Source of the DNA: Escherichia coli
GTDB lineage: Bacteria; Pseudomonadota; Gammaproteobacteria; Enterobacterales; Enterobacteriaceae
Reading direction: 5' to 3' (one strand)
Assembly: GCF_024223415.1 (NCBI RefSeq)
Contig: NZ_CP100501.1
DNA: 64,000 bases
In this document: positions 1,693 to 44,462 of the stretch, in pieces
How the letters are laid out: each line of letters starts with the position of its first letter
Numbering within the stretch: position 1 is the stretch's first letter
Program-made: the position numbers and the translations under genes
The notes under the pieces: generated by a model
Databases searched by the model: none
The model's input: the letters and a program-made list of their open reading frames with translations, nothing else
Told to the model about the DNA's origin: nothing

Positions 1693-1827
1693 CCATGCCG
1701 CTCACGCGGCATCAGAACAATAAAACCAGCATTAAATGTATTTGCAAAAGTATGAGTAATACAGACTTGTTAACCGGTCCTTTCAGAGGTATCTTTAAGA
1801 CTTGTTAAATAGTCTCAAAGGTACGTT

Positions 1828-2079
1828 ATGCCTAACATCATTCTGTCTGACACCAGTGCAAGTGTCAGTGAACTGAAAAAAAATCCTATGGCTACAGTCA
1901 GTGCCGGAGATGGTTATCCTGTCGCCATTCTTAACCGGAATCAGCCGGCATTCTACTGTGTGCCTGCGGAACTCTATGAAAGGATGCTTGATGCGCTGGA
2001 TGACCAGGAACTGGTGAAACTGGTTACTGAACGCAGCAATCAGCCACTGCATGATGTGGACCTGGACAGTTATTTATGA
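1828..2079 (+). CDS. stbD: Phd/YefM-type antitoxin (StbD/RelB-like)
   Basis: 83-aa ORF immediately upstream of and overlapping (ATGA) a RelE-like toxin; small acidic C-terminus typical of antitoxins. Confidence 0.8.
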   Translation: MPNIILSDTSASVSELKKNPMATVSAGDGYPVAILNRNQPAFYCVPAELYERMLDALDDQELVKLVTERSNQPLHDVDLDSYL

Positions 2080-2363
2080 CTTATACAGTAAAATTCAGGG
2101 ATGATGCGCTCAAAGAATGGCTGAAACTGGATAAATCCATTCAACAGCAGTTTGCGAAAAAACTAAAGAAATGCAGCGAAAATCCTCATATTCCTTCCGC
2201 AAAACTGCGTGGATTAAAAGACTGCTACAAAATCAAACTTCGCGCATCGGGGTTTCGTCTGGTCTATCAGGTTATTGATGACATGCTAATTATTGCGGTT
2301 GTCGCGGTAGGTAAACGTGAACGTAGTAACGTTTATAATCTCGCCAGTGAGAGAATGAGATAG
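2076..2363 (+). CDS. stbE: RelE/StbE-family mRNA interferase toxin
   Basis: 95 aa; KLRGLKDCYKIKLRASGFRLVYQV..VGKRERS matches remembered E. coli RelE. Confidence 0.9.
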   Translation: MTYTVKFRDDALKEWLKLDKSIQQQFAKKLKKCSENPHIPSAKLRGLKDCYKIKLRASGFRLVYQVIDDMLIIAVVAVGKRERSNVYNLASERMR

Positions 2364-2466
2364 TTATCTTTAAAGCTGACTGATATTACTTTAAAAGTAT
2401 TTCTGATAGTTATGTTATTTTATTCCACAATACAGAATATTTTCTTTATTCTTTAAGGTCGTTTTT

Positions 2467-3057
2467 ATGATGAAAAATCCATTAGCTTATTTTCATATTG
2501 CCACCTTTTTATTGTCAGGTAAAAGTCGTAATCTGTCAGAATACTGGAAAGCCGAAGTCATCATGCGGGATAAGTTTGTCTTACACCGCCTGATAAGAAA
2601 CGGGTTGCAGAGACAACGAGGCTTTCTGATGTGGTGGCGCCTGGCCAATGAGATGTTTATCTCTGGAAACCAAAAACAAAGGAAATGTGCGATAAAGATA
2701 AAAAATGCACTTATGGAACGGTATGGATGTGATATCGGCCTGGGCGCGCGGATTGGTAAAGGCCTCATGTTACCTCATCATGCAGGAATCGTCATTCATG
2801 GTAATGTTGATATCGGTGAGAATGTCATTATACGGCAGAATACAACCATTGGTGAAAAGGTTCCTGACAGTAAGGAAAACTATATTGTTATTGGCGATAA
2901 TGTCGATATTGGTGCCCATACATGTATTATTGGGTTAAATGTGAAAATCGGAAGTAATGTTAAAATCGGGGCAATGTCTTTTATTATGGAAGATGTACCT
3001 GATAACTGTACTTATGTCACCAGGAAGGAATCCAGAGTGATAATTCGCGAACAGTAA
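2467..3057 (+). CDS. Hexapeptide-repeat (left-handed beta-helix) acyl/acetyltransferase; true start may be internal Met near 2563
   Basis: Repeated [LIV]-G-x-x-x-x hexapeptides (IGENVIIRQNTTIGEKV.., IGDNVDIGAHTCIIGLNVKIGSNVKIG); low GC. Confidence 0.75.
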   Translation: MMKNPLAYFHIATFLLSGKSRNLSEYWKAEVIMRDKFVLHRLIRNGLQRQRGFLMWWRLANEMFISGNQKQRKCAIKIKNALMERYGCDIGLGARIGKGLMLPHHAGIVIHGNVDIGENVIIRQNTTIGEKVPDSKENYIVIGDNVDIGAHTCIIGLNVKIGSNVKIGAMSFIMEDVPDNCTYVTRKESRVIIREQ

Positions 3058-3159
3058 TGAAATACATGTTATCATTCTTCTGTTGGTGACTTTGCCGACT
3101 CAGATATATACTATCTGTATGTCGTGCATTATATATTAACGATACGCAGAGGTGTGTAT

Positions 3160-3825
3160 ATGGGCAGTGTTACAAAGAAACCGTCACCTGTTGTTATTAT
3201 TAAGAAAAAAAGACGAATTCTTTCTCATCAGGATGATGCCGTACAGGCAGTTCCTGATGATATAAAACCAGCGCCAGTAATGGAATTTAAAACCGACTCA
3301 TTACCTCCTGAAATACCAGCCACAGTGGCCGGTTCCCCGGAACAACAGAAAAAAACAGGACGTAAGAAGAAGAAAAAAAAGAAGAACAATAGATGGAATC
3401 ATGAGTTTATCCGACACAGTCTGGACTGTGTTAAAAAAACATTCCCTCAGTTACGGGCTGAAGAGGGGGGATATCATGCATTTAAAATAGGCATCTCAAA
3501 GGATGTCATGGCTTTTATTTCGGCCAGTCCTGAGTGTGGACTAACTGTAAAAGAATGGAATTGTGCTGTAAGGATGATTACTGGCGGTTACAAATATCTG
3601 CAGCGTATATCAGTCGCAGGTACTCCGCGTTATGGTCTGGATGGCAAAGTTCATGGAACTGTAACGGAGGAAGAAGCGCTGTATGCGCAGGCAAAACTTG
3701 AAAAACACACGCAGCGTTATAACGCCAGGATGAAAGAGACAGAAGATGCTCGTTGCAACCAACCATCGAAAACTGTTACACCGGACAGCAATTTGAAGGA
3801 CGCCTGCATTCATAACGGGGCATAA
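3160..3825 (+). CDS. FinO/ProQ-family RNA-binding protein with lysine-rich N-terminal region
   Basis: C-terminal half resembles remembered FinO (ITGGYKYLQRISVAG..GTVTEEEALYAQAKLEKHTQ vs FinO [35 protein letters not shown]); GAGG RBS before ATG 3160. Confidence 0.65.
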   Translation: MGSVTKKPSPVVIIKKKRRILSHQDDAVQAVPDDIKPAPVMEFKTDSLPPEIPATVAGSPEQQKKTGRKKKKKKKNNRWNHEFIRHSLDCVKKTFPQLRAEEGGYHAFKIGISKDVMAFISASPECGLTVKEWNCAVRMITGGYKYLQRISVAGTPRYGLDGKVHGTVTEEEALYAQAKLEKHTQRYNARMKETEDARCNQPSKTVTPDSNLKDACIHNGA

Positions 3826-3879
3826 TTATGTGAAATGCTGTCCCGCTATGGAATCAGAATTGAGTAACGACACGAGGTT

Positions 3880-4197
3880 TTGATGATTACTGTTATTATT
3901 TCTGAGGTGGATGGCTGGCGTGAATGGAAACACCGCGCCCGAACAAAGGATGCACAGACAGCCATCATCCGGGCTATGAATAAACATTTTCCACGATCTT
4001 ACAATTTTATCCCTGATGATATTGATAATGCACCTGTATTATTTGCAGCTGTAACACGTACACCGAACGTGAAAATAACCGGTCATATCTGGAAACCTAT
4101 GTGGAACAGGGGAATTTGCTGGAACGTCAAAGGTCCGCCAGTAATCATCACGCTCATCCAAGGGGCCGCTTGGAATTCGGAAAATAAACCACGTTAA
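3880..4197 (+). CDS. Hypothetical protein (105 aa)
   Basis: ORF only; low-GC context; no recognisable motif. Confidence 0.35.
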   Translation: MMITVIISEVDGWREWKHRARTKDAQTAIIRAMNKHFPRSYNFIPDDIDNAPVLFAAVTRTPNVKITGHIWKPMWNRGICWNVKGPPVIITLIQGAAWNSENKPR

Positions 4198-4202
4198 GAC
4201 TA

Positions 4203-4648
4203 TTTGGGGTTCTAAGCCGAAAACCTAGAAAATTCCGTAACCAAAGCCAGTAATTGACAGATTTGCATGACGTTGAATAGGTGACGGGTTATGTGACGAA
4301 ATCTGATGCAGAAATCGTTGTTTCAGTGACAGTCACTCAATCGGTCGTTTATGTGACAACCCATGCCGTTACTGGTCGCGGAAAAATCCAGGTTTCGGGG
4401 TTTGAGGCTCAGTGGAACAATAACCGCCGTTAAGCGGTCATTTTAAATAGCCAAAAATCAACCAGCCAATTTACATCGTGAATCTGCGTTCTTGGCTATC
4501 TGTTTTGGGGGGGCCAAGTTGGCTTTACTCATCCTGGCCGTTTGCGGAACAAACGACGTTGTTGATCTCAACAGATTGATTTACCTGTTATTGACCATTC
4601 AATTGAACCGCTTAACCGCCTTTTGAGTTCCACTACTCCCCAAACCCC
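4203..4648. mobile_element. Tn3-family terminal inverted-repeat-like motifs (miniature element or transposon-end relics)
   Basis: 4397-4437 GGGGTTTGAGGCTCAGTGGAAC..GTTAAGCGG and its inverted partner at 4608-4648 resemble the Tn3 38-bp IR; a third GGGG..AAAAC motif at 4203. Confidence 0.4.
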
Positions 4649-4849
4649 AAATAGCTGTCTAGCGCGAAAAATCACTGCCCGTAACGTATCATATGGCTGG
4701 TACGAATAAATTCTCACTTACTGCACCATAAACGTACACGTCAAAACCTTCCAAACATGCTTCAAAAATCAACAAATTCGCTGTATCGGAAATTTTGGCG
4801 TTTCCGGCGTACAACCCCGATTAGATATAAATGAATTAACGTGTGTGGT

Positions 4850-5326
4850 TTATTGGTCTCTGCCTTCTCCAGCAATGACGCAAGACTTTGACATACCATC
4901 AAAAAAATGATCGGCGAGCTCCAGAATTCGTGGATTATGAGTTGTAATAATAACGGTAGGGCAATGCTGCCGGATATAGGTAATGATCTTTATCGCGAGT
5001 TCTTCGCCAATAGAGGCCGTGGGTTCATCAAGTACGATAATCTTTTTCTTACGGGCTAGGGCGCGGGCTATGCATAATCGCTGGATCTCTCCACCACTCA
5101 AACCACTACCCAGAGGATTAATATCCCGGTCTAGGAAAGCAAGGAAATGTTCTCCGCAGTCCTCTTTAATTAACCCCAATGAATTCAGGATGCAAAACAG
5201 TTCATCATCGGGAAGAATGTCATCGGTTCCATACAGAATATTATCACGAATAGTTCCCTGCACCAGAACGGCTTTTTGAGGCACAACAGCAACGTCCTCC
5301 AGGATAGACGCACTCAACTCTGTGTT
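4850..5326 (-). pseudogene. 3' fragment of an ABC transporter ATP-binding protein gene, fused in frame to truncated IS2 insD
   Basis: C-terminal 160 aa of the 378-aa ORF carry ABC signature LSGGEIQR, Walker B IIVLDEP and H-loop ITTHN; N-terminal 220 aa are IS2 InsD. Confidence 0.7.
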
Positions 5327-6400
5327 CTTCGGTTCAAGCCCCAACATCCGGGCAAACTGCCGTGTTTCATTAGCCCGGTAGCATGAACCATTATCCGTCA
5401 GCCACTCTACTGGAGACGCCGGAAGCTCGTTGCCGAAGCGGCGTTCAACCGCTCCCAGCATGACGTCCTGTACTGTTTCACTGTCGAAGCCGCCCGTAGT
5501 GACCGCCCAGTACAGTGCCTCACGGTCACAGCAGTCCAGCGCGAACGTGACTCGCAGTTTTTCTCCGTTATCACAGCGGAACTCGAACCCGTCAGAGCAC
5601 CATCGTTGATTGCTTTCTTTCACGGCCACTTTGCCAGTATGTGCCCGCTTCGATGGCGGTACAGCGGTTTTTCGCTCAAGCAACAGCGCATTCTGGCGCA
5701 TGATCCGGTAAACACGTTTGGCATTGATCGCAGGCATACCATCAAGTTCGGCCTGTCTGCGAAGCAGCGCCCATACCCGACGATAACCATACGTGGGCAG
5801 CTCTCCGATAACATGGTGTATACGGAGAAGTACATCCATATTATCGGAGTGACGGCTGCGGCGACCATCTTTCCAGTCATCGGTTCGTCTGAGAATGACG
5901 TGCAACTGCGCACGCGACACCCGGAGACAACGGCTGACTAAGCTTACTCCCCATTCCCGGGCAATAAGGGCGCGTGCGCTATCCACTTTTTTGCACGCCC
6001 ATATTCAACGGCTTCTTTAAGGAGTTCATTTTCCATCGTTTTTTTGCCGAGCAGGCGCTGGAGTTCTTTAATCTGCTTCATGGCAGCAGCAAGTTCAGAG
6101 GCAGGAACGACCTGTTCTCCTGCGGCCACAGCAGTAAGACTTCCCTCCTGGTATTGCTTGCGCCAGAGAAATAGCTGGCTGGCTGCCACACCGTGTTGCC
6201 GGGCTACAAGGGAGACCGTCATTCCCGGTTCAAAACTCTGCTGAACAATAGCGATCTTTTCCTGTGTAGTACGCCGTCTGCGTTTCTCCGGTCCTAAGAC
6301 ATCAATCATCTGCTCTCCAATGACTAGTCTAAAAACTAGTATTAAGACTATCACTTATTTAAGTGATATTGGTTGTCTGGAGATTCAGGGGGCCAGTCTA
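5327..6400 (-). mobile_element. IS2 (IS3 family), truncated copy lacking the right end
   Basis: IRL TAGACTGGCCCCCTGAATCTCCAGACAACC (reverse complement ending at 6400); insC intact, insD broken after LGLEPK by comparison with the complete copy at 30173-33953. Confidence 0.85.
5944..6354 (-). CDS. insC: IS2 InsC (OrfA)
   Basis: 136-aa HTH protein, near-identical to the insC segment of the second IS2 copy (32801-33079). Confidence 0.85.
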
Positions 6401-43396: not shown

Positions 43397-43451
43397 GTCT
43401 TCCTTGGGGTCCGCTTGGAAAACGGAAAATATCCCACGCTAAGACTATTTT

Positions 43452-44042
43452 CTATACAGTAACAGTTTGCTGTTTCGCTCTAACTCTCAGAATTGTTTGC
43501 CGTGTGGTTCGGAATTCCCTGGCAATAGCACTTATACTTGCTCCAGACTTAATGTGTTCGAGTACCTTCTGTTTTTGTTCTTCATTTAATACCGGTGGGC
43601 GACCAAAACGTTTTCCTGCATCCCGTGCTCTTGCTATCCCTGAATAAGTTCGTTCAAGTAAAAGATCTCGTTCAAATTCAGCGACCGCTGAAATCACTTG
43701 CATTGTCATTTTTCCTGCCGGACTGGTCAGATCAACACCACCTAATGCCAGGCAATGTACCCTGATGCCAGATTCGGTCAGTTGCTCCACTGTTTTCCTG
43801 ATATCCATTGCATTACGACCGAGGCGATCCAGTTTTGTGACTATCAATACATCGCCACTTTCCAGACGATCAAGCAACCGGTTAAAACCTGGACGTTCAC
43901 TGGCTGCTACTGATCCACTAATTTGTTCTTCGATTATTCGTTGGGGTCTGACGTTAAAACCCGCGCTTTCGATTTCCCGACGTTGATTTTCGGTCGTCTG
44001 TTCCAGAGTGGAAACCCGACAATAGGCAAAAATTCGAGACAT
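43452..44042 (-). CDS. Serine recombinase (resolvase/invertase family)
   Basis: N-terminal catalytic motif [10 protein letters not shown]-terminal HTH; 196 aa. Confidence 0.85.
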
Positions 44043-44069
44043 AGTGAGATCTTCTGTACGAAATGGGTG

Positions 44070-44180
44070 TACATATTATAATGCATGTCCGAAAGTAATT
44101 TCGCTGACTTTCGGATATATCTGTTTAACAATGTCCGAAACCGGTCGATTTCGGACACCAAAACCACTGTTGTCCCGCCA
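44070..44180. promoter_or_regulatory. res-like recombination site upstream of the serine recombinase gene
   Basis: Inverted repeats TGTCCGAAA..TTTCGGATA and TGTCCGAAACCGGTCGATTTCGGACA resembling resolvase binding half-sites. Confidence 0.5.
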
Positions 44181-44254
44181 TTCTGGCGATTCCTGAAAGC
44201 CCTTTGGCTAAAAAATAGTCTTAACATGGTTTATTTTCCGAATTCCAAACTGAC

Positions 44255-44462
44255 CCCGCTAACGCGGAGATACGTCCCGACTTCGGGTAAACCCTCGTCG
44301 GGACCACTCCGACCGCGCACAGAAGCTCTCTCATGGCTGAAAGCGGGTATGGCTTAGCAGGGCTGGGGATGGGTAAGGTGAAATCTATCAATCAGTACCG
44401 GCTTACGCCGGGCTTCGGCGGTTTTACTCCTGTGCCATATGCAACAACGGAGTGCCGCCTTA
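44255..44462. repeat. About 205-bp structured direct repeat, copy B
   Basis: See copy A at 1487-1692. Confidence 0.85.

Follow-up and report, generated by a model that had tools for sequence, protein, structure and literature searches.

The stretch of DNA analysed here, referred to as the window, comprises the first 64 kb (64,000 nucleotides) of a virulence-type Escherichia coli plasmid (IncFII, ColV-type). The gene order before the locus of interest is repA, a Phd/RelE pair, a serine acetyltransferase gene, finO and a hypothetical CDS of 104 aa (3883-4197). Just downstream of finO, positions 4161-4818 hold four nested miniature elements derived from the Tn3 family, designated R, C, D and E (Table 1). 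A query covering 3800-5000 is matched end to end, at 99.3-99.8% identity, by pGF60-A and some 70 further large plasmids of E. coli, and no annotation lies under D in any record listed in the plasmid and complete E. coli genome searches. As the sequence-only reading of this DNA had stated, the repeats are not accompanied by a transposase: tblastn with Tn3-family TnpA detects none in the 64-kb window, which has no transposase-sized ORF.

Table 1. Coordinates of the four miniature elements in the window and of the parts of D (IR, terminal inverted repeat).
Feature	Position	Strand	Description
Relic R	4161-4205	+	left 45 bp (38-bp IR 4161-4198 and 7 subterminal bp); Tn21/MITESen1 class
Element C	4206-4396	+	191 of 204 bp, 3'-truncated; left IR 4206-4243; last 14 bp of right IR absent
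Element D	4397-4648	+	complete 252-bp Tn3-derived inverted-repeat miniature element (TIME)
D, left terminal IR	4397-4434	+	38 bp, GGGGTTTGAGGCTCAGTGGAACAATAACCGCCGTTAAG; 30/38 to gamma-delta-type and Cedecea IRs
D, interior	4435-4539	+	presumed res/resolvase-binding region; colinear with the whole IRL-tnpR intergenic region of the parent type
D, right terminal IR	4611-4648	-	38 bp, GGGGTTTGGGGAGTAGTGGAACTCAAAAGGCGGTTAAG; end of the 74-bp colinear block
Relic E	4649-4818	+	right 170 bp of a 264-bp family; right IR ~4781-4818; left 94 bp absent

Both sides of the nest bear traces of insertion. The 104-aa CDS, for which Pfam gives no hit, owes its last ~11 codons and its stop to the Tn3-type IR of R; its annotated end is thus the product of a transposon insertion, and the same fusion is present in plasmid pECOED and in the metagenomic contig L205. 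On the far side, a 378-aa chimeric ORF (4850-6354, minus strand) combines an N-terminal IS3-type integrase (HTH_21 and rve) with a C-terminal ABC-transporter ATPase. L205 carries an uninterrupted version of the ATPase gene (411 aa) and is homologous to the window up to 5326. It therefore appears that the ABC gene was interrupted by an IS3-family element, and this accounts for records annotating the ORF either as 'ABC' or as 'IS3 transposase, frameshifted'.

Two 41-nt arms in inverted orientation had been reported at 4397-4437 and 4608-4648. Their positions and orientation are correct, 31 of the 41 positions match, and the gap between them is 170 nt, as claimed. Over the canonical 38 nt the arms agree with each other at 28 positions, and a repeat search lengthens them to 64 nt at 70% complementarity. 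The proposed resemblance to Tn3-family terminal repeats is well above chance: the left arm matches at 30/38 both a gamma-delta-type IR adjoining a tnpA (L035) and the IR of a Cedecea transposon, compared with a mean of 12.6±2.8 against the reference IRs for the 407 GGGG-starting 38-mers of the window, among which the two D arms are the top two scorers against every reference IR. It might be argued that GGGG...TAAG arms merely look like Tn3 ends, given that the loose pattern GGGG-N27-31-YTAAG alone is not significant (6 matches vs 3.4 expected in the window); this possibility is nevertheless refuted, and its probability is practically nil, in view of the 30/38 score against that null, the dispersed D family and the colinearity of D with a real transposon. 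A third partial motif noted at 4203 is a real IR, but it starts at 4206 and belongs to another element, C, with an IR of another class (14/38 to the arm at 4397). The choice offered between a non-autonomous miniature element and leftover ends is answered by the presence of both, D being a complete element and the motif near 4203 a leftover end. Two further Tn3-type ends within 660 bp, at 4161-4198 (+) and 4781-4818 (-), had gone unmentioned. The nest is ordinary mobile-DNA debris, richer than first described.

A search for the pattern GGGGTTTGRGGNNYANYGGAAC, with each species represented by one genome, was used to examine the class of the D repeats and returned at least 120 loci. Nearly all of the 120 loci listed continue to ...TAAG at positions 35-38, and a Tn3-family tnpA is present at at least 32 (32 of the 120 listed); as a rule the gene reads outward and its end lies a few dozen bp from the IR. 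These continuations, together with the adjoining tnpA genes, indicate that the D-type IR represents a real class of Tn3-family terminal IR, and a widespread one. Among the loci listed, the IR closest to the D family is that of a Cedecea element, to which other D copies match at 36/38; the 224 aa adjoining it correspond to a Tn3-transposase DDE domain (7e-81), and this fragment recurs at 89-99% identity on plasmids of Klebsiella, Salmonella, Serratia, E. coli, Yersinia, Arsenophonus and Xenorhabdus.

An intact transposon of the parent type is carried by the Salmonella Poona plasmid pATCCBAA1673_02 (NZ_CP019191.1, ~9411-13281; L261:3936-7806). Over 3,871 bp it consists of IRL, a 112-bp intergenic region, the genes of a 207-aa serine resolvase (tnpR) and a 996-aa transposase (tnpA; domains DUF4158 and DDE_Tnp_Tn3), and IRR, with the 6-bp repeat TTCAAA on both sides. 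The D IRs match its IRs at 30-32/38. In the alignment, positions 1-143 of D are colinear with IRL and the whole IRL-tnpR intergenic region, ending 8 bp before the tnpR ATG (BLAST: D 1-142 vs L261:3936-4077), and positions 179-252 are colinear with the last 74 bp of the transposon. Furthermore, the D copy L014 from E. coli hardly differs from the left end of the Salmonella transposon. The two colinear blocks indicate that D is an internal-deletion derivative in which tnpR and tnpA were lost and both ends and the presumed res were kept. Intact parent-type copies are rare in E. coli, and the copy in L262 is disrupted. Naming the parent-type transposon as Tn5403 or ISYps3 was considered and dropped, the descriptions consulted being without sequences to compare. 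A Tn3-family transposon 1.1 kb from a D copy in pFHI_NMBU_11_01 was ruled out as a partner by its different IR type, and no tnpA was found near the partial D matches in Serratia, Pantoea and Citrobacter plasmids.

The D unit is widely distributed on plasmids. Matches at 80-100% identity are found in 294 plasmid records, at least 141 of them near full length, with hosts that include Escherichia, Shigella, Salmonella, Klebsiella, Enterobacter and Serratia. Among 5426 complete E. coli genomes, 165 contain D, at 167 plasmid places and 7 chromosomal ones. The fact that 110 of 167 E. coli records are at least 99% identical points to clonal inheritance and, like the colinearity of D with both ends of a full transposon and the missing target duplication of the window copy, would suit a local scar, left when a full Tn3-family transposon at this site lost its interior, rather than a mobile family. 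Such an origin in place is largely refuted by the multiple contexts of D, and we regard it as very improbable: the unit with the same deletion endpoints (252-255 bp) recurs at 80-97% identity in at least six unrelated flanking contexts and in different genera, including Serratia and Klebsiella; copies at 97, 96, 84, 82 and 81% identity have unrelated flanks; and homology among the copies stops exactly at the GGGG/CCCC tips.

The other argument against a local scar is a composite in which two D copies are flanked by a direct repeat. On the 7.3-kb plasmid pRHB33-C12_4 (L017, CP057197.1; 2768-4205), two inverted 252-bp copies surround an HTH-regulator gene, with the 6-bp repeat AATATA on both sides, in the manner of a TIME-COMP. 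The inverted identity runs 59 bp past each D copy, and no empty site for this composite is found in PLSDB. The search for a 5-bp target duplication, suggested by the sequence-only reading, gave none at the window copy (GTTTC / AAATA) nor at five other single copies examined (including L012, L013, L014 and L016); the mobility of D rests on the varied contexts and on the one composite. In the Klebsiella plasmid pKPN1482-5, a D copy is itself broken near position 34, where a Tn3-family transposon with IRs of a different class has inserted.

Regarding the interior of D, five GCCAA motifs in both orientations lie at 4449-4524, where 0.42 are expected and none of 2000 shuffles reaches five. Judging from the gene order and from these repeats, the interior presumably works as res. 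Across the D family the mean pairwise identity of the interior blocks is 0.88-0.96, vs 0.54-0.81 for the IRs. Conservation equal to or above that of the IRs and the clustering of the GCCAA motifs could also mean that the plasmid keeps the interior as a recombination, multimer-resolution or regulatory site, with the IRs incidental; most D copies are without a target duplication, as expected if copies recombine together. We consider such domestication unlikely. The window encodes a single resolvase (43452-44042), which shares 30% identity with the parent TnpR, the D sequence has no Rfam hit and gives no promoter or terminator signal above shuffles, and its conservation is equally explained by a recent origin from the parent transposon. 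The strong fold of D DNA (z = -3.9) arises because the IRs pair. On the minus strand, AATCAATCTGTTG at 4569-4581 matches the IHF core consensus, WATCAANNNNTTR; this putative site lies inside D, ~30 bp from the right IR, and is largely kept across the D family. In gamma-delta, IHF sites are located beside the IRs.

The neighbours of D belong to other IR classes. For relic R, the complete mini-element is ~287 bp long with a res-like core, and a copy is present in L205:2378-2664. Its IR, which also occurs in pECOED, has A instead of G as first base and matches the window's IRs at 44257 and 43406 at 34/38 and 32/38, respectively, and those of MITESen1, TIME244 and IMU at ~24-30/38. A one-base deletion in the IR at 4162 was ruled out, as L205 shows that the first G has mutated to A and that the IR spans 4161-4198. 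The R interior, complete in L205, has its res in common with the resolvase element of the window (z = 43) and is unrelated to the MITESen1 interior (z = -1.2).

For element C, matches in 218 plasmid records start exactly at 4206. Complete copies, such as that of pColZ (NZ_MK599282, L005:714-917), measure 204 bp, with IRs GGGGTTCTAAGCCGGAAACCCAGAAAATTCCG and an interior containing a repeated TTATGTGAC motif and a GTGACAGTCAC palindrome; in the window, the missing end of the right IR is replaced by the left tip of D. Clean target duplications are seen at 4 of the 15 C copies inspected (AGGAT(G), TTCTA, ATAAA and TAGAA). For E, query positions 1-170 are matched in many plasmids, the flank-only matches H154 and H156 begin at 4819, and complete copies are present in pECOED, pSC-KP585-1 and metagenomic contigs including L205 (3943-4206). 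The E IRs are related to those of C (26/38), and the two are separate families, each with its own target duplications. In a metagenome scan their IR class is represented by at least 120 loci, at least 34 of them with tnpA; several carry a full-length Tn3-family tnpA ~41-44 bp from the tip, and one 5.7-kb element is flanked by the 5-bp duplication ATGAG. The C/E class is a Tn3-family class.

The positions of some C copies deserve a separate remark. Of the 15 inspected, three are found on the inner side of Tn21-class IRs, at distances of 7, 1 and 19 bp from the inner end; the three IRs differ, and the relative orientation is always the same (window 4161-4205; pColZ, L005, ~675-713; pSTEC640_3, L264, ~1145-1200). 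A rough estimate of what chance would give is ~0.01-0.03. Additional C copies are located within or next to other TIMEs, and other TIMEs adjoin or interrupt one another (L008, L019, L003 and L202). It is conceivable, though doubtful, that the C-family transposase class homes to the inner side of other Tn3-family terminal repeats; survivorship could be the cause instead. If such homing were true, nests would reflect IR-proximal targeting rather than chance, and res-bearing TIMEs would seed transposon pile-ups and plasmid mosaicism.

The history of the nest can be approached through two records of the same backbone. Contig L205 matches the window at 99-99.7% over 1774-4205 and 4649-5326, and in place of C and D it has 1,614 bp. 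This segment completes both relics, R to its full 287 bp and E by its left 94 bp, and also contains a phd/doc-like pair. The phd/doc-like pair (L205 2799-3457; ORFs of 91 and 128 aa, between R and E) is gone from the window together with this segment. Comparison of the sequences suggests that L205 represents an earlier state of the window backbone. Plasmid pECOED shows a third state. There, a ~283-bp hybrid mini-element (L018, NC_011754.1; 1334-1616) consists of an R-class IR, the start of the res-like region and IS101-like sequence, its far end being an IS101/gamma-delta-type IR; beyond the hybrid lie a colicin E5 remnant and a complete E element. A res-by-res crossover as the origin of this R/IS101-like hybrid was dropped because the junction lies inside the IS101-type IR.

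From these end states alone we infer, as the simplest path, an order of events running from C to D to a deletion. Element C would first have entered R at TATTT, 7 bp inward of the IR of this resident Tn21-class mini-element, and D would then have inserted into the right IR of C. A deletion next to the right end of D, or an equivalent recombination, would finally have joined D to AAATA inside E, removing the rest of C, the rest of R, the phd/doc module and the left 94 bp of E; deletions of this kind are made by replicative transposons through intramolecular transposition.

A single insertion could be imagined instead, in which the 443 bp from 4206 to 4648 (truncated C plus D) moved as one hybrid unit through the left IR of C and the right IR of D. 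It would draw on the outer junctions CTATTT/GGGGTT and AACCCC/AAATAG, which form a 12-nt perfect inverted repeat (CTATTTGGGGTT / AACCCCAAATAG). The flanks CTATTT and AAATAG are, however, reverse complements and not direct repeats, and both are native sequence of R and E, uninterrupted in L205 and pECOED. Taking into account that both IR classes begin with GGGGTT, the 12-nt match follows from these native flanks and is not the signature of a single event. The C and D IRs belong to different classes (13-14/38), so that one transposase is unlikely to use both, and in the searches made the pair was seen only on plasmids with this same context. A joint movement is thus extremely improbable.

The best explanation overall, to which we assign a probability of about 0.85, is a nest of four TIMEs in which D is an internal-deletion derivative of a compact Tn3-family transposon with the layout IRL-res-tnpR-tnpA-IRR, predicted to be moved in trans. 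On the model of IS101/gamma-delta and TIME244/Tn21, D would depend on a cognate TnpA provided in trans, which would bind both its IRs and transpose it replicatively, through cointegrates, into AT-rich targets, duplicating 5-6 bp. The res-like region of D would then allow the cognate TnpR, or else RecA, to resolve cointegrates and to recombine copies. The mobilising enzyme would be a Tn3-family transposase, and the parent-type transposon is a candidate partner. Since the window has no such transposase and most D copies are inherited clonally with their plasmid, the copy in the window is probably a silent passenger.

With respect to earlier descriptions, a 2026 survey lists only MITEKpn1, MITESen1, MITEEc1 and MITEEc2 as ISfinder entries for Enterobacteriaceae, alongside earlier reports of IS101 and IMU (PMC13367494). 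Searching the literature for the IR strings gave no match to D, C or E; it returned a gamma-delta-like IR (Tn6454) and a 34-bp IR of the C/E class in Pseudomonas plasmids. Judged by the ISfinder list of the survey and by this search, no name seems to have been given to the D, C and E TIME families. D (252 bp), C (204 bp) and E (264 bp) represent three enterobacterial families distinct from the four published elements IS101, MITESen1, TIME244 and IMU. Such elements are routinely missed by annotation, yet as TIME-COMPs they can bracket and move genes, and on virulence and resistance plasmids they can give rise to deletions and recombination. The locus ties D explicitly to a parent-type transposon and offers a worked example of nested insertion and deletion on a ColV-type backbone. 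Its use lies in mobile-element annotation and in the reconstruction of plasmid history; no concept is changed.

Among known systems, the Pseudomonas TIME1-4 and the 262-263-bp MITEs with Tn5563a-type IRs share the IR class of D. Their IRs (GGGGTTTGGGGAGCAAYGGAAC...) match those of D at 25-29/38 and those of the parent-type transposon at 27-32/38, the copies compared being those of pMRVIM0812 and P. moorei and not the TIME1-4 records. Like D, these TIMEs are of similar size and often without direct repeats (PMC4133298), which were present at only 4 of 18 database TIMEs (Szuplewska et al., PMC4133298). In contrast, the hosts differ, and the similarity of the MITE interiors to D is not significant (scores of 26 and 16 vs shuffles of ~17±2, maximum 26-27).

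TIME244 (MITEEc2, with a Tn21-type res) resembles D as a plasmid TIME of ~250 bp in enterobacteria that keeps the res region of its parent and forms composites of inverted copies (PMC13367494). Its IRs, unlike those of D, are of the Tn21 class (18-19/38 to D), its interior is unrelated, and it is closer to relic R (26-29/38). The MITESen1 IRs are of the class of R (24-27/38) and of the transposon that interrupts D in pKPN1482-5. With respect to D, the IRs of MITESen1, TIME244 and IMU reach 17-21/38, and the interiors of D, C and E compare with these three at or near shuffle level (largest z 3.6, C vs IMU, below the best shuffle). An identity of D, C, E or R with IS101, MITESen1, TIME244 or IMU was ruled out on both IRs and interiors.

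Outside the locus, the window contains a further element of this general kind, an 852-bp unit at 43406-44257 with Tn21/MITESen1-class IRs (43406-43443, +; 44220-44257, -). Its sole gene encodes a 196-aa serine resolvase (43452-44042, minus strand; Pfam Resolvase 1e-38 and HTH_7), its res-like region carries TGTCCGAAA repeats, and no target duplication flanks it (TCCTT / GCTAA). It follows the plan of TIME-RES (Szuplewska 2014), a portable resolution system, with a single serine resolvase gene and a res-like region between Tn3-type IRs but without a transposase, and differs from it in length (852 vs 1186 bp), IR class and resolvase.

The best functional analogue of D is IS101 (TIME_IS101 of pSC101), which is mobilised by gamma-delta/Tn1000 (PMC13367494, PMC4133298). 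Both elements are transposase-less, with 38-bp IRs of the Tn3/gamma-delta class and an internal res-type region, so that their transposition and resolution depend on proteins supplied in trans. Compared with the IS101 sequence of Table S2 in PMC13367494, D is longer (252 vs 209 bp), the IRs match at 22-26/38 and the interiors are unrelated (local score 17 vs shuffles 16.6±1.9). An identity of D with IS101 is ruled out by the length, the IRs and this shuffle-level interior; the two elements, alike in the way they would move, derive from different parent transposons.
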